NCBI GenBank assembly: GCA_013265495.1
Contig: MU057560.1
Span: forward strand, 3,596,909-3,660,908
From: Vicugna vicugna
Taxonomy: Eukaryota
Direction: 5' to 3'
DNA length: 64,000 bases
Under the pieces are notes generated by a model, which was given only the letters and a program-made list of their open reading frames with translations, was not told where the DNA came from and searched no databases. A program made the position numbers and the translations under genes. Positions within the stretch are counted from its first letter, which is position 1. Each line of letters starts with the position of its first letter. Below are positions 21,401 to 59,714 of this stretch, one piece after another.

Positions 21401-24400
21401 TCCCAGCCCCAGACTTCCCTCAGATACAGCGTGGATTCCTGCTTCCACACTGCAGCCAAGTGAGCCTCACATGCCAGCTTTTCATCCTGCTTTGCGTCTG
21501 ACAGTCTTACGTTATGTGCAAATGTGTGATGACCTTTTCATAACATAATTCTTAAGACATGGAAAAAGGAGAATATTATCATTACCCAGCAAGAAAGTAA
21601 ACAAACTCTTCCCAACCTTCCTCCCTTTCTGACTCAAAGGTAATCAGCCTGAATTGGCTATTTATTAGTTCCATATATTTCTTTATATTTTCATTATATA
21701 TGTATGTGTCCCAAAGCACTATGTCGTATTGTCTTGGATAGTTATAAGCTTAGAAAATTTACACTTTGAAACTTACAAAAGTGATACAGTGAATGCATTC
21801 ATTTGCCATGGAATTATCATGTGTTCTGATGTATATATTCAAGGAAGGAAAAGATATGGTGGGGAATTTCAGCAGCAAGTTGGGAGAGAACTAAATGAAA
21901 AAAATTGGAATTAAAAAGTAAAATAAACCAAGAACACAATAAACAAATTTAACAGTAATTTAGACACAGCAAAAGGAGAATCATTGAACTGAGGTTAGGT
22001 CTAAAGCCCAGAGAGTTAAAAGGACTAAAATACAGGAAAATCCATTTGCTCATTTTCCTGCTCTGATCAGATTTCAGGCCCCAAAGGTGAGTCGTAAATG
22101 CAGCAGGACCAGCAATGCTGCTCGCTTCTTTTTCCTTTTCTTTCTTTTTTTTTTTTTTGCATGTTTCCTTGGCTGTTCTTTATATTTATTTTCCAGTGTG
22201 AAGTTGAAGAATCAATTTAACCATCTCTGGGGGAAAAAAAAGACTTAGTATTTTTTAGTGGGATTGTGTTAAATTCATATATTAACATAAGGAAAACTGT
22301 CATCCTTATGAAGCTCAGTCGTCCAAAGCAAGGATAAAGGATGTCTTTCCATGTGTTCAAGTCTAATGTTGTCTCTAGGAGTGTTTTAAAGTCCCCTCAC
22401 GTGTAATTTGCATGTTTCCTGTTACGCTTACCATTTTTGTGGATATTTTAGTTTGGCATCTACCTACCTTCAGTATCTCATCCACACCCCTCGCTGCAGG
22501 GGCTTTTACATGCCTCCCCCTTCACCAAGGGTCCTGGAGGAGGAAGCCAAGTCTTCTTCAACTTTGCATTTTCAGTGCCCAGCAAGCAAAAGGCTCTGTT
22601 ACTGAATGAATCTCCATTTCTCAATTGAAGAAAAAATAGGGAGAAGGCACAGGAAAATTAAAGTTTGTCAAGGGCCACGGACTCTAAAAGAACTAGAACT
22701 TAAAACACACCTTTTGAGTCTAGAGAAATTGTCTCTATTTAATGGAATTGAACTGAACCCTCCAACCATTATTCATAGACCACAAGATATTTGTTTTATA
22801 TTTAAGGCCTCACTAGTAGTCAGCTTTTGTATAAAAGACAGATATTTTTTCCTAGTCCAAAATGCACATGAGCATTTCTTCAATATCATCTACAATTTGA
22901 AGATTTTTATCGAGGTTTAATTAGAATTAAAAATACTTTTTTAAAAAGTGCAGAGATCCAAACACCTTTTGAGTTTTGTCTTTTGCCGTCTAGAGCATTT
23001 CCCATACGCTGTCTCTTCAATTTTAGTTTTCTCATTTTCCTGCTATTTAATTACCACATTAATGTATGGTCACTTCGGATGGTCTGGGCTCTGACTCAGC
23101 ACTGTGCTGTTAGTCAGAGCTGCATGTACAAAAGGTGGTAATCAATCTTAACAACTACCCCCAAATGTTTCCAATATCACCAGGCCACTTCTTTTTGCAT
23201 ATTTGTTCTAATTTTGTTTAAATGTGGCTTTATCTTACTGTTTCTAGGAAAGTTGAAAAGAGGCCACAGAATTTCCTGAAAACGTCTCCAGCAGAGTAAC
23301 TAACTTGACCAGTCTGACCTAAGAGACATGGCAGGAAGACTCCCACCACACGGCCGCTGTCAGCTGCTGGAGCACCTGGGCCCAGAGCTCTGGACAGAGA
23401 GGATTCTCCACACTGGAGGTCATGCCACTCTGCCTCAAAGCAGTGCGCATTTTAAATCTGACTGTCACAGAGAACTTAAGAGATGGTCCCTCTTCCCAAA
23501 ATTCTGAAATAAAATACTGGCGTTGGTCAGATGCCTCAGTGCTTGGCATGGTATCGTGGGTGGACAGTGGACTTCGGGGGTCAGTCCCCCCACACTATAT
23601 TCAGCCGGTTACCCATCATGACAGCTTGGAAATTCACTCCTGAAGACACCTGCTCAGCTGGGCTCCAAGGAGGCTGCACCAGCACAGAGCCAGTCGTGCG
23701 TGTTCAGTGAGCGCTTGCTTATTCTTCCTGGAACAGCACTGGCCGTTTTTGGGCATCTTCCATGTTGCAGTGCACACCATCTTCCATGCAAAGGTAATGC
23801 ACAGACTTTTTTTTTAAGCTAAACTAAAAACTGAGTGAGTAATCCTTATGTTGAATAACGAAAAGCCTTGGACTTACCATCAGAAGGTAGTTCTTGCATA
23901 AAAGCAACTCATTATTCCTGCACCTCCCCTGCAATCAGACTGGCTCTTAAAGTAATGATAAAAATGGAGTGAACAGGGCAATGTCTTCTGCTATGGATAT
24001 AACAACTCATTCTCTGGCTTAAAAGTAAAAATAAATTTTACAGAACTGCCAAGAAAACCAAGCCCATTCATTAACATAAAATGAAATTGTAACAAAGGTA
24101 CCACATAATGCAAAATGTTAAAAATAGAGAAAACTGGGGAGGGTAGCTTGGGATTTGGAAACTTTCTGTACTAGTAGCTAATTATTTTTCTGTAAACCTA
24201 AAACCACTCAAAAAAATAAAGTCTTAATTTAAAAATAATATGAAATTAATCCATTTGCTCTTATAACTTAATCCACATAAATAAATTTTAACAGTTGAGG
24301 GAAAACATAATTTCCCTTTTTATATGGAAGTATTAGGCCTTATTTTCAAGTTTCAAACATCACTATATTTACACTGTGTAACTTAAACTTTTCAGGAAAA

Positions 24401-25089
24401 TTAGCAGTTTCAGGCTAAGAATATTCTGGAAGAAACTAGGCAAGAACTTCTGAAGAGCGCATGAACAAAAGCATGGATTTGACAAGAATGGTGACGTCCA
24501 CATGACCTTGGGTCAATAATGGAAATTCTGAGCCTCAGTGAATTTTCACCGTACTCACTTAATATGGTTTTGGGAGGACTAAATGAGCTAAGAACATGAA
24601 AGCTCTGGAAACCTCCAAGGGGAGCAGACGCGGGGGGTGGGGGCACCTGCTCCCTCCTCCAGGGCCTCCTCCACCCACCCTGGGAGTGGTCTCTCCCCAG
24701 CCCATCGCTCCCGGGGTCCAACCCTCCTGAGTTTTGCCAAATGTAATGTTGGATCCAAAGTAGGCAAACATGTTTGGACACCTTGAAAAGCTATTTCCCA
24801 CAAGCACAGGGAAGATGGAAAAGTACTTGAATATCTGTTTTGTAATTTCACACACACTCCAAGAATTTTCAACTGGAAGTTCCTTCTGAAATGAGCTAGT
24901 GGCCAGCTGATTACCCAGTGGGGTGAGGGAGAGACTCCCAGCAGACACAGAGCGGTGGTTTTGGTCATTCCCGTGAAGATGGACTCATTAGGTGGGCGGG
25001 AGCCAGTTCCCCCTAGTGATACTGTCAAGTTCGTCCAGTACAAGATTCTTCCACAACAGGAGAGTGAGCCCAGTTGTTAGGACTGCAGG

Positions 25090-25230
25090 ATCTGGGCCCA
25101 GCCTCCACAGCTGGGATCCCAGTTCACTCTACTTTCTCTGTCTCAGTCGCCTCGTCATTGATGGTGACTGAAGTACTTAGAACAGTGCCCAGCATATAAA
25201 GAGCACAATGAATATTAGCAATTATTGATC
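25090..25230. mobile_element. MIR fragment
   Basis: ctctgtctcagtcgcctcgtc...cttagaacagtgcccagcatataaagagcacaatgaatattagc. Confidence 0.6.
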
Positions 25231-26004
25231 TATTTCTTTGCAATCAGAGGAGTCCCTGGCTGACAGTCTGGCTTAACCAGTTTTTCAAGTGACCACCTGT
25301 TCTCACACTTTAGACAAGATGCGTCAGGAAGGGGAGAAACAGTTCTCCCTTGCTCCATGATGCGATGCCACGTGTATACAGCTGGTGGGTCTGGCTCCTT
25401 ATCTGCAGGTGGGGATGTTTCCCCTGGGTGTGGAACCATGACACCTCCTTGGATCTCAGTTCTGCGAGGGGGGGTCCTTCCCTCCATCTGCCAGGTGAAC
25501 CCCTGGAGGAAGAGTCTTCAGTACAGAAAACTTCATACTTGGCCCTACTAGGGGAGCCCCTCTCCCTCCTGCTTTACATGACCAGGGTTGGTTACAGCAG
25601 CAAAGTAGGGAGGTGGCTAACAGGGCAGGTGGGTTTTTCTTTGCTCTTTGGGGGTCAAGTGGAAGCAAATTCTAAGGAGTGCTCCTTTTATTAGTTGACA
25701 AACTTTTTTGAGTATCTATTTTGTTTGGTATCTTCTGGAGTCCTGGCAATACTGAGGCTGTCCTAATGGAAGGAAGCACAATTCCTAAGAAAGGAAAATA
25801 AACAACTGCAATAATTTCATGGGGTCATAAATGCTATTGAGAAAATAAAGCTGAGTTCTGGGGTCAGGAGGAGGGCTGTTCAGCCAGTATGTCAGGAGAT
25901 CTCTGGGGTGAAATACTGATGCAGGAAGTAAGAAGTGAGTAGAAAGCCAACTGACAAGGGCCAGGTGAGAGTGAGGACCGGTCAAATCCGTCCCGCCTGC
26001 CCTT

Positions 26005-26410
26005 GGTAATGAAGGTCATTTTAGGATTTGTGTGTTCTCCGGGTGGAGTCTAAACAGCACGCTGTTTTCCAGGAACTTGGAGTCCGCTGCCTCCAGTCAG
26101 AGCTGAGCTGGTTGAGACTAAGCAGGACCCCCGGCCCTCCAGCTGGCATGTAGGGGTGCCGCTAGTGACCTCCTGGGGGCAGAGGGCTGAAGCTCCACCC
26201 TCAGGTCATGCTAAGCACCTCCATTTTTGAGCATGCAGAGGCCAGTGTCTTGATTACAGATGACAGAACAAGCCCAGCACCTTTTCCCGACTACCCGTGG
26301 GCACCTCGCCTCGGGCAGGCAGATCTGAGACTCGTTCTCCCAGCTTCTCGCATGGCTGCCTTGAGAATAAACCCACTCTTTGCTGTGAACCTCGGAGTCT
26401 CAGTGTCTGG
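26005..26410 (+). mobile_element. Diverged ERV1-class LTR
   Basis: gcagatctgagactcgttctcccagcttctcgcatggctgccttgagaataaaccc R/U5-like signature; ends not resolved. Confidence 0.55.
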
Positions 26411-27619
26411 AGGCCAGCTGGGGGTCAGTCCAGAAGGACTTTCTGCCCAAGGCTCTGTGGGCCCTTGGAGGTCCTAAGAGCCTTTGGACCAGTCCCAGCA
26501 GCTGCCTGCCCCTTCGTTCCAGGCACCACACTTCCCCTGGGAGATGCCACCAACCTTTGGCATTTAGTTTTGTTTTGCAGCAAAAAAGACAATTTTGGGG
26601 CTTTGCTTTTGGGGTTTGGAAGCTGTATCAAACTTGCATAACCCCATTACAGAAATACACCTGTACCTAGATTGCTTGGCAATCCTGGCCAGATTGTGGG
26701 TTGGAGGCCTGCCTGGCGGGATTCTGGCAGACAGTATAAAAGGTTACAGCTGCTGAGTTTCTCTGCACCTGGGCTAGAGGCCCAGCTGGGTCCACCAGTA
26801 CCTCCCTCCGGGCCCGATGACTGTGATGGTGGGAAATCGACTTCCGGACTCTGGTCCACGGGGGGCACTCACTCCATTTTAAACAACCAGCTCTCGAAAC
26901 TTACCTCTGAGACTGTGTTAGTAGTTAGGGTGCCCAGAAGACCCTGAAAAAGCCAAGAAGACCAGGCACGTACAGTCCTTGGACAACGACAACACAGTAA
27001 CATTTATCCATGAAAATGAAGGGGGGAAATGTTAAACATTATTGAATTTTAAAAATCAGAATACAAAATGGTATGTCAATATGATTCCATTTTTTTAATT
27101 TAAAAATGTATATATGACAAAAAACAGGTTTGATAAACATCAAACTATTAACAGTGGGTAGATCTGAGTAATTCGGATGGTATGAATCAACTGTATTTAT
27201 TCATAACAGAAGTTATTTGGAAAATAGAAACCTGACCAGCCACCCTTGAACCAACCAGGTGCCAGGCCTCTGTCCATGACCCTATGGAGGAGGGAAGGGC
27301 GCGGGGCCCTGGGCCAGCATTACCTCCTGGTGGGTGTGGTGAGCATGGTTCCCAAGATGCATGTCTGTGGACGTGGCCTGAGGGACCTCGAGCAGTGGTC
27401 GTGGGGTCATCAGACAACCAAGACAGTTGAGACGAAGACCATCCCGGGCAGATGGAACAGGAGCAAAGCCTCACCCAGGACACGGCAGAGGCCGTGAGCT
27501 CAGAGCAGGCAAGGGGTGGGGAGCAGTGTGGGGCGAGGGTGGCGGGGGCTTCCGTAGAGAGTCTGCAGTCATTAAGTCCCTAATGAGTAACCCCGTGTGC
27601 TCGTGGATTCTGTGGTCTC

Positions 27620-30050
27620 TCCCTCCGGTCCTTCCTGAGCCTCATCTCCAGGCCACCACTCACCTGGTTTCTGTCACTACGGACTGCCCCTGCACTTCCT
27701 AGAACTGTATATATGTGGAACCATTACTGTGAACTCTTTTTGGTCTGGTTTACTATAGTCAGCATTTTTCTGAGGTTTATCAGTGTTGTTGCATTGTCAA
27801 TAGTTTATTCTATGCTATTGCTGAGAGGCGAGTTGCAGTCTGTTGTGTGCTGTACCCCCGTTTTTATCCTTTCACCACAGACATTTCCCCCTAGTTCTTG
27901 GCTAAAATAAAACGCAAGTTTCTTAAACATTCTTGTCCAAGTCTCTGCAATGGACATACCCTTTATTTCTCTTGAGTAAACACACAGGAATGGAAGGTGC
28001 ACGGCTTAGTGATTAAAAACTGTCAACAGTTCTCCCAAGTGGCTGTACCTGTTTGCATTCCCAGCAGCAGCCACGAGGGGTCCGGTCCCTCTGCACTTGG
28101 CTTGTTGGTCACTGAAGGGTCTGAAGTGTGACGTCATTCACTTCCAGTTTTATTGGTTCCGTTTCCATTTTCGCTTCCCTGACGACCGAAGACGCTGGCA
28201 TCTTATCCTGTGCTTATCTGACGTCTCCACGTCTTTAATAAACTGCCCAGTTCGATTTCTTCTATTTTTATATTGGCTCTGTTTCTTATTATTGAGTTTT
28301 GTTACTTTATATATTTTGGATAAAATCAGATATAAGATTTGCAAATATTTTCTCTCAGTCTATGGCTTATATTTTTCTCTTAACAGTGTATTTCAAAGAG
28401 CAAATGTTTAATTTTGATGAAGTTCACTTTATTAATTTTTCATTTTGTGGATTACACTTTTAGTGTTTAATCTAAGAAGTATTTGCCTAAACCTAGGTTA
28501 CAAAGATTTTTCTCCTATGTTTTCTTGCAGCATTTTATAGTTTTAGCTTTAACATTTTAGGTCTATGACCCATTTGGAGATCATTTTTCTGCATGGTGAG
28601 AGAGAGATCTCAAAAAAAGTTTTTTAGTGTTGATTCTTTTTCTTGTACTAGGAATACATTAGGCTCCCTGAACCCAAGAGCTGCCTTTTCAACAATTCTG
28701 AAAAAAATTCTAAGCAAACTTTCTTAAAATACTGTCGTGATCTCAACCTCTTTTTTCCTTTGAAGGTCTCATTAAGCATACATTAAACCTTCTCACTCTG
28801 ACATACTTCTTACACCCTTCTGTGTTTTCTGTCTTTGTCTAGTTAGACTGTATTTTGAACCACTTATTTAGATATATACTCTAGTGTCCTGACTCATCTT
28901 CAGGTGTGTCTAATCTGCTGCTTAATACACCTGTCAAGTTCTAAGTTTCAGGTGTTGCATTCTTCACTGATAGAGATTCCGCCAGTTTCATTTTCAGATA
29001 CGCTTCTTCCTTTGTCTCTGGTTTTTGCTTGTATTGTCAAGTTCCTTTATTTCTCTTATAGTTGTTTTATATTTTATATCTGACAATGTCAGTACTAGAC
29101 ATCATTGTAAGTCTAAGTCTTTGCTTTGTACTCAGTTCTTTGCTATTTCTCACTCATAATGCCTTGCTCCTTTGCTCTGTGGGTTTTTTTTTTTAATAGA
29201 AAAGCAATTAATTTCATGGCAACTATTCTTACGTCTCAACTTAAAGTTGCAGGTATCCAGAGGAAAATTGTTTCTGCTAGTATCCTGGGGCTCTGGGAGC
29301 CCAGAACTGCTTTACACTGAAGTACCTAATTGAGACGTTTGGACCACACAGGTAGTAAATGTGGGTCTTAATCCTGTACACACAATCTGCATCACTGTTG
29401 ACACAGGACTGTTTCCTTTTCCCCTCTGGGTGCAGAGTTCTCCTCCTGCTGGCGCTTGCCTCGAGCACACAATATTTCAGAGTCTCAAGTTACTTAGGGG
29501 ATCTGTTCTTGGTCTTCCACCCACCACAGGGGGTGGCTGTTTCTCCTGTTTCGTATCCAGTTCTGCCTTCAAACTGGGTCCAGTCTGGGTCTAGTCTGGC
29601 TGAGGCATTATCTACCCACCAGGATTCCTGCTTGCACTGTTTTTGCCCTCTGCTTTCCTTATTTTTATGCCAGCTCATCACTGCTTGTAGAAATCCCCCT
29701 ATTTTTCCTTTATCCCAGTTGACTTACTGTTGGAAGTGGACTGAGATGGTAAAGCTGCTGGTGCACTCAGTGCCGGTCCCTCCAGAGTCTGCTCATCACC
29801 ATCCAGCAGGGGACCTGGTGGCCCCTCCACACCTGCCCCCATACAGCAGCGTCCAGTCTCTCTGCTTGACATCCCTCACAGTTCACGTGGAGTCTGCAGA
29901 TTATACCTGCTCCCTTGTTTTGCTGATAATTGTTTTCATTCAGTTTAAAAAAATTCATTGCCCTTGTGGCTTTTTAGTGACTTCCAGGAGGGGAGTGCGG
30001 GATACTGACTTATTCAGCTGCATTCAATCTGGAAGTCAGGATTGACATGT
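27620..30050 (-). mobile_element. Old L1 fragments (3' ORF2, then ORF1/5'-like segments)
   Basis: ttgcattcccagcagcag, tttaattttgatgaagttc, ggtctatgacccatttggag are antisense L1 landmarks; right half much more diverged. Confidence 0.6.
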
Positions 30051-31129
30051 CCAAATTTTAACATGTCACTATTTTCATGTGAACTGGATAAATACATAAA
30101 TTTCACATCAAACACATTGTTTCATAAATCACATTAGGATAAGGCCAAAGGTAGACTTTTTAAAAATCTACATTAGATTTATACAAACCATAGGCATGTG
30201 CATTTAAGAATACAGATAAATATTTTTAGTTTAAAAATATTTAAATAATCATATGCTTATGTTCTAAATTTTGGTTAGCATGAATAAAGTAAAACTTAAA
30301 AAGCGTATTTTCTAAGCTTCATTTCCATGCACACCCTAAGATCTGGATGTGGACAGTTTTCATCATAGGAAGGTGTTTGACAGTAGTCAAAATCGACTCA
30401 CTTTTGGTTACACAGAGATACCCTTGCCACTAGAATTACGCTGAAGATTTAATACAATGGTGAAAGTTGTCAGTAATATTAAGATCAGGATACTACATTC
30501 TTCATTTTAGAGAAAGTCATATAAAACATTTCAAATTTGGGCTTCACAAATATTTTCTCAAACCGGACTTCTCAAAAGTAGTGGGTGGAAAACAGACCAC
30601 TTACGCTCTCCTTCTGAACATGAAACAGCTTAACACAGCAAAAGATTAGTCCATTGTTCTAGAAGACTCCTGGGAACAAAATTATTTTTAAAAAATAGTT
30701 ACTTTCTTAATTTTGATTGTAAGTTAATGAGAAATTAATAAGAAGTTGTGGTAAAATAATTGTGATTTTTTAAACACATGAGTTAGCATTTGCAGAATGG
30801 CTTAACACTGAGACCAAAGCATTTAATTTTCTTAAATAAAAAGTTACTTTTATCTTAGAGTAAATGACACCTAAAAAATCTGTTTTGTTTGTTACTAACT
30901 CTTCATAAATCTCCATTTTTTCCCCTCATTTGGGAAATATATTTAAGTTTTCATTCTATAAAATCCAATAGCTATATTAAGATGTTTAATTTTATTTTTT
31001 TTAAAGTGATATTTTTTGTACTCAGGCTTACATGTAAAAATTTGCTGATTTTCTAAGTCAAGTGATACCAATTTTTCACTTAAAATGTCCATACAAGATT
31101 TCCATTTGAAAAATGCTAAGTAGTGTGTT

Positions 31130-31226
31130 GGGGGGTGGATATAGCTCTGTGGTAGAGTGCATGCTTAGCATGCAAGAGGTCCTGGGTTCAGTCCCCAGAA
31201 CCGCCATTGAAAAAAAGAAAATAAAA
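31130..31226 (+). mobile_element. tRNA-derived camelid SINE (Vic-1 type)
   Basis: tatagctctgtggtagagtgcatgcttagcatgcaagaggtcctgggttcagtcccc with A box, B box and A-rich tail. Confidence 0.88.
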
Positions 31227-32344
31227 GGGTTAAGTAACCAAAGATAGTTTTCTAAGGAGGTAAAAAATAATGTGACATTATACATAAATGACAGGTGTTT
31301 GAGGAACAGTGCCTTAGGAGATACAGGCACCTGCTATAAGAAATGTGGCGACTGTCTGTGACTCATGTGATTCTGAAAACTAGGGTTACATGAGGCAGAT
31401 GCTGTTAGCACAGCACAATTGTTCAGAGAGGTTTTGTACAAACGAATTACATAGCTTGATGTGAATGTCAGGGTCAGTGTTTGATTTCTAAACTACAAAA
31501 TAAACAATGCTATGCACAGTAAATAAAATGCATCATTGATTTAATTTCACTTAAATTAAATTAGGGAGACAAACACAATCTAAGAAATGCAATGCTGCAG
31601 ACTCATGTTAATGTTACGGAAAATTAGAATAATCACCCTTCCTGACCCTATTTCTACTCAAAATTTTCAGTAGCATGTTGGATTTCACTTTAAATGACTT
31701 GGTTATCACAGTCTTAGCAAATTTGGCAGGGATTACAAATATGTAAAATGATAGTTGAGTATCTAAATGTGTTTACAAACTAGAGTAAAAGATCAAATCT
31801 AATATCATATAATTCAAGTACAATAAATAGCATTTTACTCCCCTGTCCAACAGCCCATTCCCCAGATTCAATAAACATAAGTGGCAAAGGAATAGCTTTC
31901 AAAAGTGAGCATGGCTATTCAAGAATTTCCATGTTCTTAATTCACAGTCAATGCTCAATGAAATGTTTATCTTACACAAAGGAAAGGAAGGATGGAAATC
32001 CATCTTCTCAAAATCTGCTTTTCTCTTCTTGGAACCTGAGAGAAGCAGGCCAGCCTGACACCCCCTCCCCTGGAATTTTATCCACAGTGTTCATGGGAAT
32101 GCAAAGGTGCAATTGTTGAACGACTACTGGAGCATCGAGGCCATGCTGATGTAACAACCCTCACAGTCAAAGTGTATGTGGATGGCCTGGCACGTCTGGG
32201 GTGCAGCCAGGAAAAGATGGGTGTGTCTGACTTGGAATCATCTGGAGGTGACAAGCTTTGTGCCTGTCTGGAATCCAGTCCCTGTCACACAGTATTTTTG
32301 GGAATGTCTCTATACAAGAGCCCAAGTGAGTACTTAAGGTGCCG

Positions 32345-33810: not shown

Positions 33811-35029
33811 ACAATTGTAATTGAATTTTTTGCATAAAGAGTTTTTTTTTTTTTAAGGTTTCTATGTTTTTAAGCATTGCATGAATATGCCTTTAAGGCC
33901 AGAGTCTCTCTACTTGGCATTCTTAAGGGTTAGGGCTCAATTGCTGTGCTTGGCTGGGCTGCTGTTGTGTTTGGCTTTTCTGTATGTTTTTATATGCACT
34001 TTTCCATTATTTCATAACTGCATTTTTATTATCATAGCCGTGCAAACAAAGCTGTCTGTCTTCAGACCCAGTTCTTGTGGGACGACATCAGCAAAGGCCA
34101 AGGGGTGGAAACCAAGGAGGGAGACTTTGCCTGAACCAAGGGTGCTTCTCACTGAGCTCAGCAGGTCACCTGGAGGCTCCCTGCGGTCCTAGGGCCACTG
34201 TGCCCACACACGACATGAGACTTCCGGGGAAGCTGCCCAGACTTCGACATCAGTCTGGAACAGAAAGAAAGAGGCCCTGAGTGATTTCTCTTCTTTTTCT
34301 CTGTCTGGATGAAGCTGCACTGTGACCACACTGCCCCTTGACCAGATGGCTCTGCTGTTCGTGTTTCCAGACTTCCTGGTTTCCACATACGAGAAGCTGG
34401 CATTTCTCTCTGGTTAAGGCTGATGTTCAGATAAATCCTGTGGGGCCAGTTTAGTACCTGACAGACTGACCCCTCCATCAAATACCCCAAAATCCTTACT
34501 GGTCACAGTACAAGCTGATACAACTGTGCCATCCTAAGAAGACAGTGATTAAAGAATTTAGTTAAAAACAATAAAACAAATTGTTTAAATCTTACACAAT
34601 TATATTCAAAAAGGAAAGCAATGTTTTTTCTTCATCCTGTTAAAATGTCCGTATTTTAATGTGAACAAAATACAAACATTGCATGTGTATTTTAGGCCTC
34701 ATGGTTTCCCAGATCCTGCCAAACCCGTTCCCTCAACTAACCTCATGCTGAATGGGTGGCGTCACCATGCAAGCGTCAGTGGTCCTGCCCACCTGCCACG
34801 GCAAGTGTGTGACAGAGCCAGAGCCCCGGGTCAGTGGGTGTGCTGGTTCCAAACCCATGCAGAGGCTCCAACCAGCCCTGAGACTGGGAAAAACAGGCTC
34901 TCCCACCCGGGCTGGTCTGCCGTACCTTCTCAGGGTCCTGCGTTTGAAGTAATTTATGCGTAGTCACGTCAATATCAAGTCAACATGACATGCTGGAACC
35001 AGACCGCTGGGCCCAGGGCTAAACCTGAC

Positions 35030-35210
35030 CAGACTCAGCTGCCTGGGTTTGACTCTGGCTCTGCTGCCTACAGGCTCTGTGATTTATGCAAGAGGCTTTC
35101 CATCTGTGAAACAGGTATGAAAGAAGTTCATGCATGTAAGTAATCTCATCCAGTGCCGAGCACTTAGGAAATGCTCAGTGAACATTACTGAAGTGTTATC
35201 ACTATTACTG
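35030..35210. mobile_element. MIR
   Basis: ctgcctgggtttgactctggctctgc...tttccatctgtgaaacagg...aaatgctcagtgaacatt. Confidence 0.7.
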
Positions 35211-35744: not shown

Positions 35745-35840
35745 ATATGTTCAATCAACATGTGTTTATTGAGTATCTACTGTGTGCCAGACACCATTCA
35801 AGGCAGAATAAAGAAGACAAATATCCCTGCCCTTGTGTAG
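35745..35840 (-). mobile_element. L2 3' end
   Basis: tttattgagtatctactgtgtgccagacacc...atccctgcccttgtg. Confidence 0.65.
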
Positions 35841-37129
35841 TGGTGTGAGAAATATTACTGTTCTGGTGCAAAACAGAAGGTGCTAGCACTCTTGTCATTC
35901 ATTGGGGTCTAGAAAAACAGCACAAGAGTGCATTAGAAACAGTGTTTGGTACACCCACTCTCTCTGATGCCATACTGTGAAATAAAACTGAAAGCCAACT
36001 AGGTTCCATGAAATCGCTCCAGACCACTTCTTCCCCTAGACATCCTGAAGCCAGGTGTTTCCCACAGGCCAAACCCAAGCCTAGTGGGGAACAGTCTCTT
36101 CCTGCCTGTGAGGTCCCGATGGGCAGTTTGTGCCTCCCTCACCTTCTCTTCTCAGATCTCTCTCAGCCATGTGTCAGGCTGGCAAACGTCCCCCTGAGCC
36201 AAAGCAAGTCTGGTAGCTTGCACCCTTGCAAAGATGTGGAAAACAAATTAAGGCAGAAAAGGACATGAACACATGTGGGTGTACGTTTGAAGAGCTCAAA
36301 AGTGATCCACAGACTCGCAAAGCTAATTTTTACTCAGTGGGTTGGATTTTTTCCCCCATAATTATGCTAAAATGGTCACGGTGCTTTTTTCCCACACAGT
36401 AAGCACAGAGGAGGGACACCGTCTTCTGTGGACCTTGTGAGGGTTGTTTGCAAAGCACCCATCCCTCCAAAAGGCAGCCTTGATCTGGATTTATTTTTGT
36501 AATTACATGCACGTTATCTAAAAGAAACACAGCACATGGGAAAGGATAAAGTTTAAAATTAAACTGTGGGAATGTGGGCACCAGCCAGAGAAAAGAGAGC
36601 CAAGGGAGAGTGAGCGTGTGCTGAGACGCCCACCCCAGCGAGACGGCCCTCGCCACGGAGACCAGGCTCCAGGAGGCAGAGACGGGACAAATCCACTTCA
36701 CTCTGAAATAGTTAATGAATTTCAAAGTATGTGAAGCATAGAGGAAAGTCAGCTGTTGTTGGCCACGCAGGTAATAACGTGTAACTCCTCAAGGCCTGCA
36801 GTTTAGGGGCGTGTTTCTTTCATCACGGTGCAACAACATTTTATTCACAGCCATGTGAACATTATATTTACTGGTATTAAGAAGATCTGAAATGTGACTC
36901 AGCCGTTACAATTATGATTACGGCAAGTAAATAACAAGACAGAAAGTGCCTATAGCATGTTGTTGAGAAAAAATTTAGGATAGACCATTTTACACGCATT
37001 AGGACCAAGCTTTGTAAAATTGGTGTATGTCTGGAGACTGGAAGGGAAAACAAAGGTGAACACATTTTGCGCATTAGAGTGCTGTGGTTGTGCATTTAGA
37101 TTTATCTTTGTCCAGCATTTTATATCACG

Positions 37130-37691: not shown

Positions 37692-38144
37692 AGTTATGTT
37701 TTACTTTCTTAATAACAGCTAAAAAAGAAAAAGAATTCAAGTAGAAATTATTTTTTTCCAAAGGGTAAAGATAAACACAGCCAGGATATTAGTTTATTCT
37801 TGCTTTGTTCTGGCTTACCCTTGCCAAGCTAGATGGAATTTCTCTCCTGGCACCTCCGAGGAGATTACAGTTATAATGTCAGTTCTGGGAAGAGACTGTC
37901 CCATGAGGTTACATGTCAACCCCTTAGAAGCAAGTTCAGTGCATTTCAATGTGGACTGTTCAATGTGTTACTTATGTTCTAAAAGTTACCTGGGCAGTGA
38001 TCCACACAGTACACACATTTAGAGAGCATATTTCCTGTTTTAAGTCATCAGAAGTGAATTGTTTCTCACTCAACAGGACCAACAGTGGATGTGCAGGGAC
38101 TGTGTCTGGCTCCATGGCTGGGTGGCCATGGAAGGGGCAAACCT

Positions 38145-38297
38145 TGCCCAGGCCTCTCCACCACCCCTGCCCAGGCCTCTCCACCACCAGCTGCCCAGGC
38201 CTCTCCACCACCCGCTGCCCAGGCCTCTCCACCACCCCTGCCCAGGCCTCTCCACCACCCCCTGCCCAGGCCTCTCCACCACCCGCTGCCGAGGCCT
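38145..38297. repeat. GC-rich minisatellite, 23-24 nt unit TGCCCAGGCCTCTCCACCACC(CC/AGC/CGC/CCC), 6 copies plus a partial
   Basis: Units start at 38145, 38168, 38192, 38216, 38239, 38263, 38287. Confidence 0.97.
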
Positions 38298-47790: not shown

Positions 47791-48169
47791 GCGCCAGTGA
47801 AAGTTACATAACTGTTCTGGGGCTGAATGCCACAACACATCCTCCCAAGTCAGTTTTATTCTGTGTGCTTTATGCTGCAAAAAGCAACAAAAACTGAAGC
47901 AAATAATACTTTCAAATTTTTATACTAGATACATATTTCTACTGGTGAATTATTTAGCCGGAATATTAATTTCCCTTAGAATAGTTCACAGTCAGGTTTC
48001 TAGAGGAATTGGAATATGAATCATAACTGTAACTGTTTCTATTCCACAGTGAAAAGCAGTGAGTATTCGGAAATAATGGAATAATTCGCACATTTCTTTG
48101 CAAGAGACAGCATCCTGCTTGTTTTCCTGTAAATCTGCAAAGTAGATTTTAAACAAGTGAATTACATAG

Positions 48170-48800
48170 GCTTCCTCGCTGCCCCCTCACCCTACCCCAC
48201 CCTCAGGAGGTCGCTCTGTAGTTCACGTGGTCCACGCGCTTGAAGACCAGCGTGTCGCTGTGCGAGGAGGAGGGACGCGCCGCGCCCGGAATCGGGGAGC
48301 TTTGGGCCGGCACGTCTCCCATTGGGCGTGGGCACTGCGGGCGCCCGGGACTCAGCCCCCTGACACACTGCACCCCTGAGACGGTGATGGGTGCCCGGTG
48401 TGCCCACAGACCCCTTCCCTTATCCCCCGACTGTGAGAGCCTCTGCAGAAATCCTGAGCTTGCAACTTGCTCCTGGGCCGGAGAGGAGAGGAGGCAGGCT
48501 TCCAGACAGCCGCACTGGGGTGAACTGCGCACAGGTGGGCCGCTTTCCTGGGGAAGCACGGGAACGGAGGGTGACGAGACGCCCCGATTGGTGGGGCTCT
48601 GAGCCCCGCGTTCCTGCAGCCGCGTGGCTCCTCCCGCCCTCCGGGCTCGCGCTCCCGCTGGGCGGGCGGTGCCTTCTGCCTCTGCCGCCTCGCCTGCGCC
48701 TGCGCGGCGCCTGGGGGAGTGAGTCGGGGCCCTGACTCCTCTTCCCGGTTCAAACGTGGCTCCAGGCCCTCAGCAGGCCGCACGTGTCGTCCACACATCG
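48170..48800. promoter_or_regulatory. CpG island with promoter motifs
   Basis: Dense CpG against a depleted background; ATTGG (inverted CCAAT) at 48321 and 48587, GC box GGGCGGGCGG 48660-48669, NRF1-like TGCGCCTGCGCG 48695-48706, CACGTG at 48224 and 48781, donor-like GTGAGT 48719-48724. Confidence 0.75.
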
Positions 48801-50714: not shown

Positions 50715-50946
50715 CATGTGCACACGTGTGCATGAACACCTGATATGTAGTATGTACTCATGTGGGAACAATGTACATATGACCATAATCCATGTGCACA
50801 GTGCACTTGTGTGTGCATGTGTATGCATGGCATGCATGTCTGTGTGTGCATGTGTCCACACTTGTACACATGCCCATGTGTGCATGCGTGTGTACATGTT
50901 TCCATGTATGTGTCCATGTGCATGTCTCTGCATGTGTGTGCATGCA
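50715..50946. repeat. (TG/CA/TGCA)n alternating purine-pyrimidine tract
   Basis: About 230 bp of catgtg/tgcatg/tgtgtg. Confidence 0.85.
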
Positions 50947-52731
50947 TAGAGGGCACACTTGCTAATTTAGTCTCCAGACATCTGACAAGAGTCAGTCTTT
51001 CTTATATTTTTATGTGGGAATAAATTCATTTTAATTTCTTAAGATGGATATTTGTACAGTTATCTGGGTCTTCCCTTTGAATGAGGGTTTAATTGCTTCG
51101 CATCTGGAATATGTCAGGTTTATCCTTTTTGGAATCAGCATCCTGAAGCGTCGTCCCCTGGGTCCATTCAGGAGTCTGCTGTCAACATGATGCTCTCTGG
51201 TTACACAAGTTCATGCGAGTTCTGACTCTGTGGACACATGTTCTTGAGGTTAAGGCTTCCTGCTTTTACCTCTATTTACATATCATCCTTTACTCAGGTC
51301 TTTCCCCACTGCCTCTGACTCACGTCCACCCCAGGGTCTCTTCTTCGCCAGTTCTTTTGAGTCATGAACACAGAAGACATGGAGTCAGTCAGCCTGACTT
51401 CTGGTTCTGTCTCTACTAATTCCTTGCCCAGAAGGCAGCTTCACTTATTTGGTCTTGGATTTCTCAGCAGTTAAAATATTTAGTTGTATTAATTACAATT
51501 ACAGGGTTGTTTAAAGAACAAACAAGACATTCCTTTTTCTGGAGAAAAACCCCTCCTCTCCTCTCAGAAGGGGGACACATGGTTGCTGGTGCCCCTCACT
51601 GGTAGCAGGGAGCATGGTGTGGAGCTAGACGAGGTGGGTCTGAGAGTCCACCGTCCCAAGTACAGGTTTTAATTAAGCCTCTGTGTTCGGATGTCTGTGT
51701 CAGTGCCCCTCAGTGTCCAGAGCTCCATACACGTGCCCCCAGGAGGTTCTACGACTGTGGTCTCCTTTGCTCTGTGAGTTACCACGTCATGTTTCACCTT
51801 CTGATCACTGCCCCAGTCTGCGATGGATTAGCTGTAGTAACAACACTTTCTCAGGAGGAAAGGATAGCATGAGGGAGAACTTGGTCTATCATCCTTAATG
51901 GGGAAGGCTTTTTCCTCTAACTAATAGCAAACCTTGAGAAAAGTTTTTAACAATATACAGTAATGCAAACTTTGGGACAATTTGAACATCTTATAAGGCA
52001 CCAACTTACTGTGTTTCCTGAAAGTGGTGGTGAGGGAATAGCTAAGTATTTAGCTTTTGCTTTGTTTTAAATATATTATGCCAGGTTTGTGTGGTATTAT
52101 TTACGCTCAAAAAGTGCAGATCAAATTTTGATATAATGTTTTCTTGGAAGAAATGACTTAACTACTCTTTAATGCAGCACTTAGGGTATCATTAAATCTT
52201 TATTTGAGACAAATAAAAGACTGATTTTTTTCTCTATGTACATTTTTCTACATATAAAGATATTGCACTTTGAAAAAAGCATGCAATTTGGAAATTCTAA
52301 TGTCTTTATTGGTTTTCTTGAAATTTTTGTATAAAAGAAAATGACCTGACTTGTATTATATTATTTCCATTGAACTTTCAGCTCGGGGCTGAGAAGGAAG
52401 GGGAATTTTTTAGAGGAAAACAAGGACAGAGTGTGACTATCACTGTGACCCTTTTGCAGAGATGGAAACTGGGGCGGGTGGGTTGAAATCAGCACCTGAC
52501 CTTGTATTTTGTCTTTGAGCATCCTTTCTCTTACCCCACATGGCACCCCTCTGTGTGAACCTCTCTGCCAAGGCTGACTGACCATGAGTGTCAGCCCGAG
52601 GTCAGCACACACCTTGTCCCTTACCCTTTGTTGCTGTATGTGTGCAGGTAGACTTGGCAAAAGTCTGCATGGCCACCATCCAGGCTCAGAATTTAGTCCC
52701 CTGCATCTGGGGCTCTGTACCCACAGTCCTG

Positions 52732-52750
52732 TAGAGCCCCCTGGTGGCCA
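52732..52750 (-). promoter_or_regulatory. Candidate CTCF binding site
   Basis: Minus strand reads TGGCCACCAGGGGGCTCTA, 18/19 to the recalled CTCF consensus TGGCCACCAGGGGGCGCTA. Confidence 0.7.
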
Positions 52751-53436
52751 AGGTCCATGTTGAGGGGCTCCCCTCCAGGTCCAGCCCCTTGTCAGAATCC
52801 CCCACCTCCCGGGAAATAGGCTCCCGGACAGAGCAAATTGTCTGATTCAGTCAGTGACACTTGAGAGGCTGGATACCTTTGATTTCATGAGACCCAGTAG
52901 TTTTCAAAACGTGTAGTGGGAACTCCAAGGAGATCCATAACCTGCACATTTTGTATTTAAAGTCCATCTAAATAGTCCAAGCATTGTATGTCCTCCATTC
53001 TTGGCACGCTTTTCCATGCTTTAATATTTCTGAAGTCAAAATGCATCTTCCAGTCGATGTGCTGCACTTACTTCAGTGAGGTTTCTGGTCACTGAAAAGG
53101 TATGGGTTCACTGGTGGTGAATGTTCATTGGAAGGGTCTCAGACTCAGGAACACCCAGGTTATAGTCATTAACTATCCCACAGTGTTGAGATGCATGAGG
53201 ATCGTATTTCTCTCTTTTTATAAGTCAGATTGTTTCCAGCAGATGCCCCCATCCACCAGGATGTGGAAAATTGCAGCTCTCAGAGATTCACCGTCTTTTT
53301 CTGCACCAGCGCTCCAGACTCAGTGACACCCGAGAACACCTGGGGGGATCTCATTCCTCCTCCCTCCCCAGTAGACACTGCGGTGAGAGTCCTCCCAGCA
53401 AATTCTTTATTTCTCCCTTAACCACCCGCCCCCAGC

Positions 53437-53438
<2 letters not shown>

Positions 53439-53470
<32 letters not shown>
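53439..53470. repeat. (GT)16 microsatellite
   Basis: Perfect dinucleotide run. Confidence 0.95.
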
Positions 53471-53473
<3 letters not shown>

Positions 53474-53907
53474 AAAGGGCCCTAATCTACAGAATGTCTT
53501 GGCATTCAAGAAATGAGATGGAGAATGGAAAAGTAAATGCTTTATTCTTTCCTGGTATATGCAAAACACAAGAAAAAAGTTGTGAATTAGCAATATTTCT
53601 AATATTCAGTCAATGGCATTGGACATTTAAAATTGTAATAAAAAAGTATGAACTCATGCCCATGAGAGTTATAATATTTAGCATCAATAAAATAATTGAA
53701 TATTGCCAATTAAATTAATCTGTTCCTGTAGACCATGGACTATAGTCCCTGCCATCTATATGCACAGGTTTGCCACTGAACAGGAGTTGTAGACAATTTT
53801 TATTTTGTTATTTTATTAATAATAATATATTAATTAATTAATATTAATTAATTAATATTAATAATAATATAATAATAAAATAATTTTATTTTATTATTAG
53901 TGGTTTC

Positions 53908-54330
53908 CCCTAGAAACCACTAATCATTGTACTGTCTCCATAGTTTTGTCTTTTCCAGAATGTCATATGCTTGGAATCACACAGGACATAGCCTTTTCAG
54001 GTTAGCTCTTTTCACTGAGTAATATGCATTTTAGGTTACTTCGTATCTTTTCATGACTTGATAGCTTATTATATCCCTGAATAATATTCTGTTGTATGGA
54101 TGTTTATCCATTATACCTTGTTTGTCCTACTGAAGGATATCTTGGTTTCTTCCAGTTTTTGGAAATTACAAATAAAGCTTTTTTAAACCTTTGCGTGCAG
54201 GTTTTTGTGTGGACATGACTTTTCAACTCAATAGGTTAAACGTGAGCACAATGGCGAGCTGTGTGATGAGACTAATGCAGCTTTTTAAGGAAGTGCCAAA
54301 CTCTTCTAAAGTGGCAGTGCCACTTTTATT
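53908..54330 (-). mobile_element. Old L1 3' fragment
   Basis: ccactaatc...ctccatagttttgtcttttccagaatgtcatat...tgcaggtttttgtgtggacat. Confidence 0.75.
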
Positions 54331-54530
54331 CTCCTCTTTTGGAAGAATTGTTTATGGTGGTTAAAGTATTCTTTTTTATGTCAAATAAAAAGTTCAAAAT
54401 TATAATCTGCATTTGGCCAAATCTTTCTATTTTAAATACTTGGAGTTAAAAACATGAATAAGCAAAGTATATGCTCATCACACTTCTCCACTGCAGATTA
54501 GCAAAACTTAATTTTTAAAAATTAGTGAAG

Positions 54531-54670
54531 GGAGGGGCGAGTATAGCTCAGTGGTAGAGTGTGTGCTCAGCATGCACGAGGCCCTGGGTTCAATCCCCAG
54601 TACCTCCATTAAAAAAAAGAGAGAACGTATTAAAATACAGCACAAAAAAGAAAAAAAAAACGATGGGGGA
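54531..54670 (+). mobile_element. tRNA-derived camelid SINE (Vic-1 type) with 14-bp TSD
   Basis: gtatagctcagtggtagagtgtgtgctcagcatgcacgaggccctgggttcaatcccc; TSD aaaaattagtgaag at 54517-54530 and 54671-54684; TT/AAAA target. Confidence 0.93.
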
Positions 54671-54689
54671 AAAAATTAGTGAAGAAACA

Positions 54690-55551
54690 CCATATACCAA
54701 TGTTATCTCAAATGACTCAAAAACCTAAATGTAAAATCTAAGACTATAAAATCCTGTGAAGAAAATAGGACAGAATCTTAATGACCCTGGATTTGGCAAT
54801 GATTTCTTAGACACCAAAGGCACAGGCAACCAAAGGAAAGCAGATAAACTGGACTTCACGAAAATTTTTAAATTTTGTACATCAAGAGACAATATCAACA
54901 GAGTAAAAAGGCAGCCCCCATGATGGCAAAGATGCTTGCAAGTCACACATCTAATAAAGGACTAATATCTTGACATATATAAAGAACTCCTCCCAGAAAG
55001 AGGAAGAAAAATACCATATGAGATCGCTCATATGTGGAATCTAAAAAACAAAAACAAAAACAAACAAGCAAACAAAAACAAAGCATAAATACAGGACAGA
55101 AATAGACTCACAGACAGAGAATACAGACTTGTGGTTACCAGGGGGGTGGAGGGTGGGAAGGGATAGACTGGGATTTTAAAATTGTAGAATAGATAAACAA
55201 GATTACACTGTATAGCACAGGGAAATATACACAAAATGTTATGATAACTCACAGAGAAAAAATTGTGACAATGAGTGTGTATATGTCCATGAATGACTGA
55301 AAAATTGTGCTGAACACTGGAATTTGACACAACATTGTAAAATGATTATAAATCACTAAAAAATGTTAAAAAAAACCCGAACTCCTAAAATGGACAGAGG
55401 ACTTAAATAGATATTTAAATGCCCAACATCACTAATCACTGGGGAAATGCAAATCAAAATCACAATGAAATATTACATGCCTTAGGATGGCTACTATTAA
55501 AAAAAAAAACCAGAAAACAAGTGTTGGCAAGGATGTGGAGAAACTGGAACA
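54690..55551 (+). mobile_element. Old L1 ORF2 3' region hosting a younger L1
   Basis: gacctggatttggcaatgatttcttaga-like segment and gggaaatgcaaatcaaaatcacaatga; continuous across the 54992-55378 insert. Confidence 0.8.
54992..55378 (+). mobile_element. Young camelid-type L1 3' end, same family as 11276-12089
   Basis: Near-identical reverse complement of about 11295-11665; TSD gaactcct at 54984-54991 and 55379-55386. Confidence 0.93.
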
Positions 55552-56030
55552 CTTTCCCCTGGTAACCATAAAATTGTTTACTATGCCTGTGAGTCTGTTT
55601 CTGTTTTGTAGATGAGTTCATTAGTGTCTTCTTTTTAAATTTTTTTAGATTCCACATATAAGAAATCTCATATGGTATTTTTCTTTCTCTTTCTGGCTTA
55701 CTTCACTTAGAATGACAATCTCCAGATTCATCCATGTTGCTGCAAATGGCATGATTTTATTCTTTTTATGGCTGAGTAGTATTCCATTGTATAAATATAC
55801 CACAGCTTCTTTATCCAATCATCTGTTGATGGACATTTAGGTTGTTTCCACATATTGGCTATTGTAAATAGTGCTACTATGAACACTGGAGTGCAAGAGT
55901 CTTTTTGAATTAAGGTTCTTCTCCCAGGAGTGGGATTGCTGGGTCATAAGATAAGTCTATTTTTTGTCTTTTGAGGAATCTCCATTCTGTTCTCCACCAT
56001 GGCTGCACCACTCTGAGTTCCTGTCAGCAG
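55552..56030 (-). mobile_element. L1 3' region fragment, related but more diverged subfamily
   Basis: cccctggtaaccata...ggcttacttcacttagaatgac...cccaggagtgggattgctgggtcata. Confidence 0.88.
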
Positions 56031-57049
56031 TGTGTGTGTGTGGGGGGTTGAAGCTGATATTCTTGAAAATAGTATTTCTGTGCCTACTTGTTTCTTCTCA
56101 GACTTCAGCTTCAGGATTCTGCCCTAGTGGAGCTGCTGTACTTTTCTAATAGTCAAAATGCATTTCTTCCACGTTGTATTAAATGTGATTTGATGCAGCC
56201 TTTTATTTTAATTATCTCTCTGGAAAGGAGGCCAGTGGGTACTCACTGTTCTCACATGGAGACACCAGGCCATACTCTAACATGGTGAGCCCTAAGCCTC
56301 GCTACCAACTTAGCAAATGCCTGAAAGCAGATACAAGTAGAAACTAGAATTGTTTACTGACTCACATGAGGAAAGGGCAGCTCAAGTTCTGGTATATTCT
56401 TAATTCTGATTTTGGTTGTCTTATTGATAGCTCAAAAGTGAAAAATATTTGCTGACCAAATTTTATTACCTTTCTATTCAATAAAATGGTAAAGAATATG
56501 TTTAATACTTCATTTCACTTACTCAACAAATATAATTCTAATCCAGCCCAAGTTGATGCTGATCTTAATTCTAACCTACTTTCTTTCCTTGAAAACAGGA
56601 CAGTTTTTGGTTGGCACAATGTACCACATTTTGTAGTATTAAAAGTTATATTTTTCTTGGTGTCTATTAGAAAGTTAAAGTTTAAAAGCTGTCTGAAAAA
56701 TAAAAAATTGATTTATGCTATAATTCGCTATGCCCTGGAGAATATCAGTTGTTCTAACATCAAAACTGAAAAAGTGAGCCAGGCAGTCTGGCAGTAGCTG
56801 GGAACTCACAGGAGTGGGCTGGCCCAGGGTACCTGCTGGCTCCTGAAGCTGGTCCAGCCACCTCTGGACTCAGCAGTGAAGGAAAGGAGCCCCAGAGGGC
56901 TTCTTAAAAAGAAAACATACTCACTTTGGATATAATGCTCAACAATGAGTTCAAGTTGGAAAAAAATACCTTCTCCCTGATTTTAATTCATTTTGCATAT
57001 TCTACCAAGACGCTGGGGCAAATGGTGTCACAGGGAAAGGGGCATCAGC

Positions 57050-57260
57050 TCTGCCACCTGGGAGACTTGGGCTTGGAGCCCCACCCTGCCTCGTGGCGCT
57101 CTGTAACCTCAGGTAAGTGACACTCTGAGTTTGTTTCCTACCTACAAATCCACAAATACAATGTCTAGTAAATTATTGTTGTGAGACTGAATGAGAAAAG
57201 TATGTAAACCAGCTTGCACACAGTAAGTGCTCAATAAATGGTAAGTTAATTACCATCAAT
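57050..57260. mobile_element. MIR
   Basis: tgtaacctcaggtaagtgac...gttgtgagactgaatgag...cacacagtaagtgctcaataaatggta. Confidence 0.75.
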
Positions 57261-59714
57261 ATTAACACATTTTAACATTTTTATTTGGTGTACTGTACCT
57301 TAAATTTATCTTATAATTGTTTCCTCTTTGTTTTCCAAGTTTATCAGGATGAAAATACGACAAATTTAAGAGGAAAATGTAGTTCTTGAATATTATCAGC
57401 CCAATCAAAGTAATTTGTATCAGATAATATCTAATCTTTCACTCAGGGGAGTCAGTGTTATGTTAAACCTGTTAGACCTGACTCATAAAGGCTTATAAGC
57501 AAGTGAGGAGGTTTAAATCACTGACTAGGTCACAGGGCCCCAAGATTAGGTAGCAAGACACAAACAGCAAACGCAGAATTGAGGGGCCTTTGATGGGCCT
57601 TTGACTCCCAACTTTGGTTCCCAGTCAGGACCAAATGAATTACATGCATCGTGCAGGGAAACACCAGCCCACAATTTAGCCAAGATTCCCAAACTGGAAA
57701 AGAAATCCTCAAGACAAAGAAACATACAAATGTGTATCCCATATTATACCACCCCATGGAACAAACATTCCAAATTTGGTTCACAAGCTCACAGAATTAA
57801 CATATGGGTATGAGTATAGGGAGAGACTTTTGTCAAAAAGGAGATGAAACTAGACATGCTGTTTTACATATGGCTTATTTTATTCATCCTATATTATGGA
57901 TTTTTTTTTAAAGAAAAACGAAGTTTAGTAAAATGTTAGGATCAACTGAATTTTATTTTTGTTCCTGGGACATTTTACAGTGCAGTGTCTCTTTCAACCA
58001 GGTCTAAAGGATAAGCTATTTTCAGTCCTGGGACTTCAAAAAATACTGTTCACCTAACACAAATACAAAGTTGGAAAGCTTTTTTAGTCAGAGTCCAGAT
58101 GTTTTGTCTATATAAATATAAACAGTTAACAGTTTGGAAACATCCCCATATCTGAGGGGTTTTTTGTGTGTATGTGTTTAGGTCTTATTGGATCCTTTGG
58201 GTTAATGTAGAAATGATAAATGATTAATATCAGTGAAGTACCTTTAAAATTTTGGTCCTGCCTTATTAGGTGGTACTGATTTTTGTATCACCTTTGGCTT
58301 GCTTTCAGGAAACCAGAAAACATTATCAATTTTGCTAATTTCTTAGCAGTTCTAAACTAAGCCTTCAGTCAAGGTGAAATAAGGATGGAGAGTCTCTCAG
58401 TATTTGGAGAAGCTGACAACCTGTAAATCATTGCTTTAGAGTACACACCAATTACATGTGTGTATAACCAGCTTTTCAAACAAACACAGCCTCTTCCATT
58501 TTCCCTAATTTTAAGAATTTCTGTCAATGTAACATACTGGCACAGTCAGCATTGGCTTTTGTCAGCTCATAAGTAACCTTTACCTTGAAAAGTTTATACT
58601 ATTCCTCTGTGGACACTCTCTTACAAAAAGAAAACAAAACTTCTTAAAATGTTATATTCCCAATCAGATCCCCAAACAAAAAGCTGACAGAGGTTTTCCT
58701 AAGAAATCACAGCCAGGTGGTTCAAGTCACTAACTTAGTAAGACTGTAAAAATGTCAGCATTATGCAAATACTTTGCAAAGGAAGTTAAACAATATATAG
58801 TTTATGGTTATGTCACTCATTTCCCACTTGTTACACTGCTGCATTAGCACAAGGATCAGAGGAAAACAGTAACAGAAAAGTCTTCTGCAGAAACAAAATG
58901 CTAGATTAAGAGAACTGAACATAGCATTTTTTTTAGTTGGTTTCCTTTTCCTTTGGGGCTCACTAATGTTTACTTGAACTACTGATCAGCCATGATGTGC
59001 AGCACAAGCTGCCCAGCGTTTCCAACCACAAAGAAATCATATTAACAATTAGGGGGAGTTTTGCATTAAAATTTCCTAAAAAGTGTCAGTAAAATTTACA
59101 TGGCAAGTATGTGACTGATAGTTTAGTTATGAGAACACTTAACTCTCAGTACTAAATGAGACATGGTAATAAGATTTGTATAGTTAAGTGCCCAGATATC
59201 TGGTTTTTACTTAATGTAGGAACCATTACCCAGGTAAAAGACCGATGGAGACAGCTGTGATAAAGCTAGGGACCTGGCTGCAGCAGACTGACTATGATAC
59301 AGAAGCCAGGCCAAGAGACGCGCAGGCAAGATCTCACTTTGTCTTCCCGACCACCCTGTAAGCCGGTGCTGTTATTATCCTTAGCTTTCATTTACGGAAA
59401 CTGAGATAAGGAAACATTCAGTGGCCTGGCTCCAGGACAGCACCTTTAACCACGCCGTTCTCGACACCTATTTTCAGAGCAAGAGAGAGTCAGTCCTGCT
59501 TTTTAATTCTTTCTCGCCCTCCTTAATATTTGTGCCCCTAATGCCATGGCGTGAGCGGTATTTCAGGGAAAGAATTAAAACTGTGTTATTGGAACCTGAT
59601 GAGTCAGAGCTGGCAGTTTGGTGCCGAGCAACAAAGTTCTCCACCTTAAGTGAGGCGCTGTGAGTGTACATACTTACCAAGCAGAAACCAGATCCCGGGG
59701 AAGAAGCCCGTGAG

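Follow-up and report, generated by a model that had tools for sequence, protein, structure and literature searches.

The locus and its features

The 64,000-nucleotide (nt) stretch of the Vicugna vicugna genome analyzed here (the window; assembly GCA_013265495.1, contig MU057560.1, positions 3,596,909 to 3,660,908 of the forward strand) includes exons of a plus-strand gene taken here to be SH3YL1, as in the initial annotation of the window; its coding sequence stops at position 16,307. Downstream of this gene, a minus-strand element at 22,921-22,737 (Table 1) aligns with DNA in a similar position on a bird-like contig. The initial annotation, made from the letters alone, described here a chain of minus-strand exon-like segments, 17 with both edges given and a possible last exon starting near 22887, and interpreted it as the relic of an ancestral multi-exon gene or as a spliced long non-coding RNA (lncRNA); given that the segments are on the minus strand and SH3YL1 is on the plus strand, such a chain is convergent on SH3YL1. 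The results described below tentatively favor reading the shared element as what is left of the terminal exon of an ancient convergent gene, with an unreliable list of upstream segments.

Table 1. Features of the window discussed in the text (LINE-1, long interspersed element 1; o/e, observed/expected; L064, the bird-like contig)
Feature	Coordinates	Strand	Remarks
SH3YL1 last coding exon (SH3 domain)	16117-16307	+	anchor used for locating L064
LINE-1-like insertion	17050-21000	-	~4 kb; sequence read by eye; parts SH3YL1 from the shared element
Weaker continuation of the shared element	22737-22834	-	global alignment P=0.07; ends in ATTAAA
Core of the shared element (possible 5' portion of a decayed terminal exon)	22835-22921	-	aligned to L064 2410-2323
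Candidate exon, 140 nt, strong donor	23878-24017	-	acceptor/donor 4.5/10.0 bits; L064 match P=0.34; protein searches empty
Candidate exon, 29 nt	24559-24587	-	nominal match to L064 5341-5296, splice edges out of register
Candidate exon, 39 nt, strongest listed site pair	26905-26943	-	10.5/11.8 bits; no L064 match
Two candidate exons	30402-30440, 30605-30628	-	AG/GT edges only as support
Four candidate exons of the 76-codon join	34500-34533, 36634-36702, 36950-37037, 37990-38034	-	chance-level
Candidate exon	48201-48257	-	at CpG island edge
CpG island	48201-48800	.	69% GC, CpG o/e 0.76, 55 CpG; possible promoter
Seven candidate exons beyond the CpG island	52010-52041, 53474-53551, 56523-56587, 56925-56976, 57644-57693, 58292-58420, 58584-58619	-	edges only

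An element shared with a bird-like contig

When metagenome contigs are searched with the last exon of SH3YL1, 61 loci are identified. One of these, L064, carries the exon with 74% amino-acid and 82% nucleotide identity, followed by 4.3 kb of downstream DNA; the remaining 60 loci match the window at SH3YL1 exons alone. The two ends of L064 are related inverted copies of each other and resemble what we take to be avian CR1 repeats, hence the contig is called bird-like here and probably comes from a bird.

Comparison of 44 sliding segments of L064 with the whole window yields a best score outside SH3YL1 of 2252 (HOXD70 matrix), located at 22.5-23.2 kb in the same orientation, versus 1977 for the best match in the opposite orientation. 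This best match downstream of SH3YL1, with 61 of the 90 alignment columns identical in the core, coincides with the last exon that the initial annotation had named without outside data. The order and orientation of the element relative to SH3YL1 are the same in the camelid and in L064 (range compared in L064, 1.6-5.7 kb), and the distance between the two, after subtraction of the presumably LINE-1-like insertion and a smaller piece, is about 2.3 kb in the camelid versus 0.8 kb in L064. In two sets of 300 local shuffles, 2 and 1 shuffles, respectively, reach the core score, and none of 52 real camelid pieces does so (Gumbel P of 0.004); a +1/-1 scoring agrees with HOXD70 in that none of the 52 real-DNA controls scores as high, with P of ~0.003-0.007 under the two scorings. 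These comparisons provide moderate evidence, from a single contig, that the camelid and L064 elements are homologous.

The aligned block opens with the base directly following a predicted minus-strand splice acceptor of L064 (7.6 bits; splice scores here and below come from an approximate splice-site matrix). At the aligned start of the camelid element, the pyrimidine-rich run is kept and the AG is absent. The acceptor that the initial annotation had chosen is 32 nt inside the shared block and scores 1.5 bits; the AG there places the first exon base at 22,889 rather than 22,887. At the far end of the element, both species have a minus-strand ATTAAA (22,743-22,738 in the camelid), which in L064 overlaps a plus-strand AATAAA (2233), a tail-to-tail arrangement with SH3YL1. 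The L064 copy contains a 55-codon stop-free minus-strand frame (2398-2234) that ends on the ATTAAA signal and, among 18 translated pairings, scores highest, if narrowly (30 versus 27 for the next one). Compared with this copy, the camelid element contains indels, frameshifts and stops.

Elsewhere on L064, a 38-nt exon candidate at 5357-5394 of the minus strand (12.8/9.1 bits) is open in one phase and has no camelid match. A 107-codon stop-free minus-strand frame at 4119-4439 starts at a strong acceptor, with no relative detected in Pfam or in the camelid's own genome. In searches with L064 frames, 3 of 12 match Pfam families at E of 0.08-4.4 and another set gives 0 of 7, and no match is found in PDB. 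An apolipoprotein-like motif, recognized by eye near L064 5030-4950, is supported by neither Pfam nor PDB and is rejected.

The proposed chain of exons

The segment edges given in the initial annotation are confirmed: on the minus strand, each of the 17 segments has an AG directly before it and a GT (16 segments) or GC (one) directly after it, and the quoted donors all agree with the sequence. The acceptors of 11 segments score at least 4 bits and those of three segments below 2 bits, and two donors score below 0 bits. A further strong minus-strand donor-like site is located at ~59,677 (59661-59720), outside the annotated range; by eye, its upstream side enters a LINE-1-like insertion from ~59,720.

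The inference from these edges to a real chain fares less well, in that the segments, taken as a set, do not differ from chance in strand densities or in open-frame tests. In the non-repeat DNA of 22-59.7 kb, the plus and minus strands contain, respectively, 90 and 83 donors of at least 6 bits, 161 and 141 acceptors of at least 6 bits, and 22 GTRAGT sites each; the plus-strand control for site pairs, specified beforehand, gives plus/minus counts of 113/110, 61/54, 47/47, 27/26 and 19/19 over five thresholds. GTAAG alone leans to the minus strand (14/25). A passable acceptor 24-140 nt upstream accompanies 56 of 68 GTRAG sites on the plus strand and 48 of 57 on the minus strand, about five in six on either strand, so that such pairs are easily found. 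Of the 17 picks, the five pair thresholds admit 9, 6, 4, 2 and 2, and donors in the region of SH3YL1 are themselves evenly split between the strands (43/43); the strand test is therefore weak and removes an argument for the chain without disproving it.

The open frames lead to the same point. The join of four segments indeed spans 236 nt with 76 stop-free codons and, as also reported in the initial annotation, the full join has no frame open throughout (13-25 stops per frame). In the full join, no open run exceeds 84 codons, a length at the level expected by chance (P=0.35 versus shuffled segments and 0.59 versus random local pieces from either strand). The lengths of 9 of the 17 segments are divisible by three (P=0.075). 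A codon-periodicity model detects no signal (P of 0.56 and 0.28) and also misses five SH3YL1 exons (P of 0.27 and 0.07), so it is uninformative. The nominal L064 match of segment 24559-24587 has P=0.01, uncorrected for 18 tests.

A CpG island that is absent from the initial annotation and has no assigned gene splits the chain, which argues that the rest of the chain and the seven segments on its far side may be separate units. The island contains GC boxes, a plus-strand donor-like site at 48,718 and a motif at 48,695 that we take to be NRF1-like.

Searches for protein families, paralogs and transcripts

A Pfam search finds no family for 6 regional frames; among the segment frames, 2 of 51 have sub-threshold matches (E of ~0.1), and another set gives 1 of 6 at E of 0.2. 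A PDB search of the segments yields nothing better than E of 0.45-0.8, and an Atlas search yields no usable match. Large protein collections, which include camelid proteins as a control, were queried with 3 of the 18 segments, none in all frames; a length-limited, word-based search at E<=10 with segment 23878 (two frames) and segments 36950/36634 (one genomic frame) retrieves nothing. A full HMMER search with the second frame retrieves a 6156-amino-acid repeat protein that is rejected given that its score is the sum of 10 weak stretches.

Two family assignments were considered and discarded. For segment 36950-37037, a lead to trypsin-family proteases (PF00089) came from kallikrein-10 at E=0.8 and a kallikrein-like spacing; profiles built from 22 protease loci of the same genome give the segment 2.8 bits (E=22), no exon with a His or Ser motif is found nearby, and this reading is rejected. 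A likeness to TBC/RabGAP domains (PF00566), noticed by eye, is not borne out: none of the 95 matches listed is on this contig, and a TBC profile from 30 loci of the same genome includes no segment among its best 30 rows.

For the 14 of 18 segments searched against the camelid genome (2.03 Gb), none of the matches listed, which in one search came from 40 scored out of 423 candidates, reveals an overlapping second copy or retrocopy. Among sequencing runs, 13 that are RNA or guessed to be RNA, one of them on record as RNA, share 6-14% of the words of 29.9-37.1 kb and provide no evidence of splicing; the segments account for 110 of these 7171 words (1.5%), below the 5% floor, so this search is blind to a spliced chain.

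A proposed decayed last exon and competing explanations

The claim of an old convergent gene gains support in one part: the last exon has support from outside the window, the 17 upstream segments have nothing beyond their edges, and no family is found. We favor, with a probability of about 0.4, the explanation that the shared element is the decayed last exon of such a gene, the upstream list being unreliable. Under this scenario, an old amniote gene would have been transcribed toward SH3YL1 and would have ended tail-to-tail with it. The camelid last exon (22,921 to ~22,737, minus strand) would have lost its splice acceptor and reading frame; with the acceptor lost and frameshifts and stops relative to the bird-like copy, no protein would be made from the camelid element. 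The 4-kb LINE-1-like piece would have moved the element away from SH3YL1, and the decaying relic might persist, at most as a cis element or as the 3'-terminal part of some non-coding transcript. Most upstream segments would be ordinary AG/GT pairs; a small number of genuine old exons may be among them, most plausibly close to the element. The exon identity of the element, its former coding role and its loss of function are all steps of interpretation that go beyond the alignment.

Several observations weigh against this scenario. The alignment depends on the scoring system: +5/-4 gives P=0.08, with 3 of 52 controls as high, and +2/-3 gives nothing. The outgroup support comes from one contig, and a genome-wide search of camelid DNA with L064 does not find the element. 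L064, which offers 3.3 kb beyond the element, gives no convincing alignment for any of the other 17 segments, and the 38-nt candidate there is equalled by a plus-strand pair (21.9 versus 21.9). Mismatches show no codon-position bias (9/28, 7/29 and 8/28 over 85 sites), and the 55-codon frame of L064 has no relative in Pfam, PDB, Atlas or the camelid's own genome. Translation from the acceptor predicted in L064 meets a stop within 12 codons in each of the three phases, in one case through a single stop at codon 4 that precedes the long frame, so that the L064 copy is not plainly intact. Finally, the strand skew of 22-59.7 kb (+0.026 +/- 0.012 on the plus strand, with repeats masked by hand) has the sign opposite to that expected from long minus-strand germline transcription.

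The lack of codon bias, of a family and of a second exon in the 3.3 kb of L064 would also be accounted for by a conserved non-coding element that acts like an enhancer or serves 3'-end formation of SH3YL1, at a place where no convergent gene ever existed and the chain arose by chance. The plus-strand AATAAA at 2233 of L064, which overlaps the far end of the element, fits this possibility, and so does the observation that similarity of this kind can stem from enhancer constraint, made by Hezroni et al. 2017 (PMC5577775). Nevertheless, the block runs from a predicted minus-strand acceptor in L064 to a minus-strand ATTAAA in both species, and its core is 90-180 nt past the last nearby plus-strand AATAAA of L064 and hence probably outside the SH3YL1 message. 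On balance, we regard this explanation as somewhat unlikely, albeit a serious competitor.

To a similar, rather low degree we would credit a spliced lncRNA produced today, starting at the CpG island, passing through part of the segments on the minus strand and ending at the ATTAAA of 22,743, which is compatible with the other explanations. The island, at whose edge a strong acceptor and donor are paired, could provide the promoter, and the human lncRNAs AC079779.1-4 and LINC01865 are named for this general locus, without coordinates, in PMC11735026; several of the sites, however, are too weak for active use, and the old terminal acceptor is lost.

A purely accidental origin, with AT-rich DNA aligning by chance and every segment being a chance AG/GT pair, is unlikely. 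The equal site densities on the two strands, the chance-level open frame, the scoring-dependent alignment and the empty searches are all compatible with this view, against which stand the failure of all 52 real-DNA controls to reach the score under either of two scorings, the collinear position and the overlap with an exon picked independently; moreover, the strand test could not have detected the picks.

The proposal closest to the initial annotation, namely, that a lost multi-exon protein-coding gene of ~370 codons (a unitary pseudogene) accounts for the majority of the 18 segments as its exons, appears improbable. The support for the last exon, the canonical edges of 17 of 17 segments, the segment lengths that are multiples of three and acceptors whose weakness would be expected after decay (mean of 4.8 bits versus 8.7 bits in SH3YL1) speak for it; the segments nearest to the element lack L064 matches, many unpicked pairs on both strands score higher, the CpG island splits the chain, and no family is found. 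Similarly doubtful is the boldest version, an uncatalogued amniote gene of ~18 small exons without a Pfam family, tail-to-tail with SH3YL1 and still readable exon by exon in the camelid, that would have been disabled in mammals (perhaps separately in birds) and whose CpG-island promoter would now drive an lncRNA through the 3' half.

Comparison with known systems

Lost genes are known to give rise to lncRNAs, such as XIST, JPX and FTX in Hezroni et al. 2017 (PMC5577775), and the element described here is like these in its syntenic location next to a conserved anchor. Similarity to a non-mammal over a short stretch alone, the pattern found here, is described there as a rare case that is sometimes driven by enhancers. 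Unlike those relics, the present candidate comes with neither an intact outgroup protein nor a transcript. The names SH3YL1, FAM110C, ACP1, TMEM18 and related ones are absent from the four supplementary files of PMC5577775, and the locus is absent by gene name from the supplements of PMC10195156 (one file) and PMC10951430 (12 files), although other identifiers might have been used in each case. Literature listings and openings of abstracts include no paper on a lost gene at this locus. A chicken non-coding RNA is tabulated 19,668 bp from SH3YL1, on one side or the other, in PMC7457272.

Two further classes are relevant for comparison. The element resembles unitary pseudogenes, as the term is generally defined, in being apparently single-copy, apparently disabled and syntenic. 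Disabling changes are present (no open frame through the chain, absence of the AG, indels and stops) and are meaningful only if the block is an exon. It differs from this class in that the outgroup support covers one exon-like block alone and the outgroup copy is only a candidate coding sequence. With the other class, amniote conserved non-coding elements, it shares the lack of codon bias and an extent of ~90 nt that is 68% identical to bird-like DNA; the element is unlike these in that a predicted acceptor delimits it at one end and a polyadenylation-type signal at the other, both on the same strand.

Had such a gene existed, its loss would be an unlisted addition to those known on the way to mammals, and its product a protein without a known family; if only a conserved element is involved, it would be an ordinary candidate regulator of SH3YL1. 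In humans, obesity and retinal ageing traits are linked to this locus, which is of the 2p25.3 type.

Other features of the region

The camelid contig continues for 35 kb past the window and ends in CpG-poor DNA (mostly 0-10 CpG per kb), with an abrupt change, and degenerate TTAGGG-type (telomere-type) arrays are found ~3.5 kb past the window and at the contig end. This CpG-poor, telomere-type DNA suggests a chromosome end or an old breakpoint between SH3YL1 and FAM110C. The fourth FAM110 match in the genome, taken as FAM110C by elimination, is on a different contig (C5231), 21 kb from the end of that contig, and therefore the usual neighbor of SH3YL1 is not joined to it here.

Within SH3YL1, a near copy of the exon at 10,715-10,751 is recognizable by eye at 12590-12660, downstream in the same intron, and might be a duplicated exon. 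One long terminal repeat-like element is present in two copies, by eye, one in an SH3YL1 intron (1870-2360) and the other in the subtelomeric-like DNA past the window. Pieces resembling tRNA-derived short interspersed elements (SINEs) are located at 31130-31230 and 54537-54608, the latter above the Rfam tRNA threshold; an Rfam scan of 28.7-64 kb gives one tRNA-like SINE as its sole result. A GC-rich minisatellite consisting of 6.5 copies of a 24-nt unit is present at 38145-38297.

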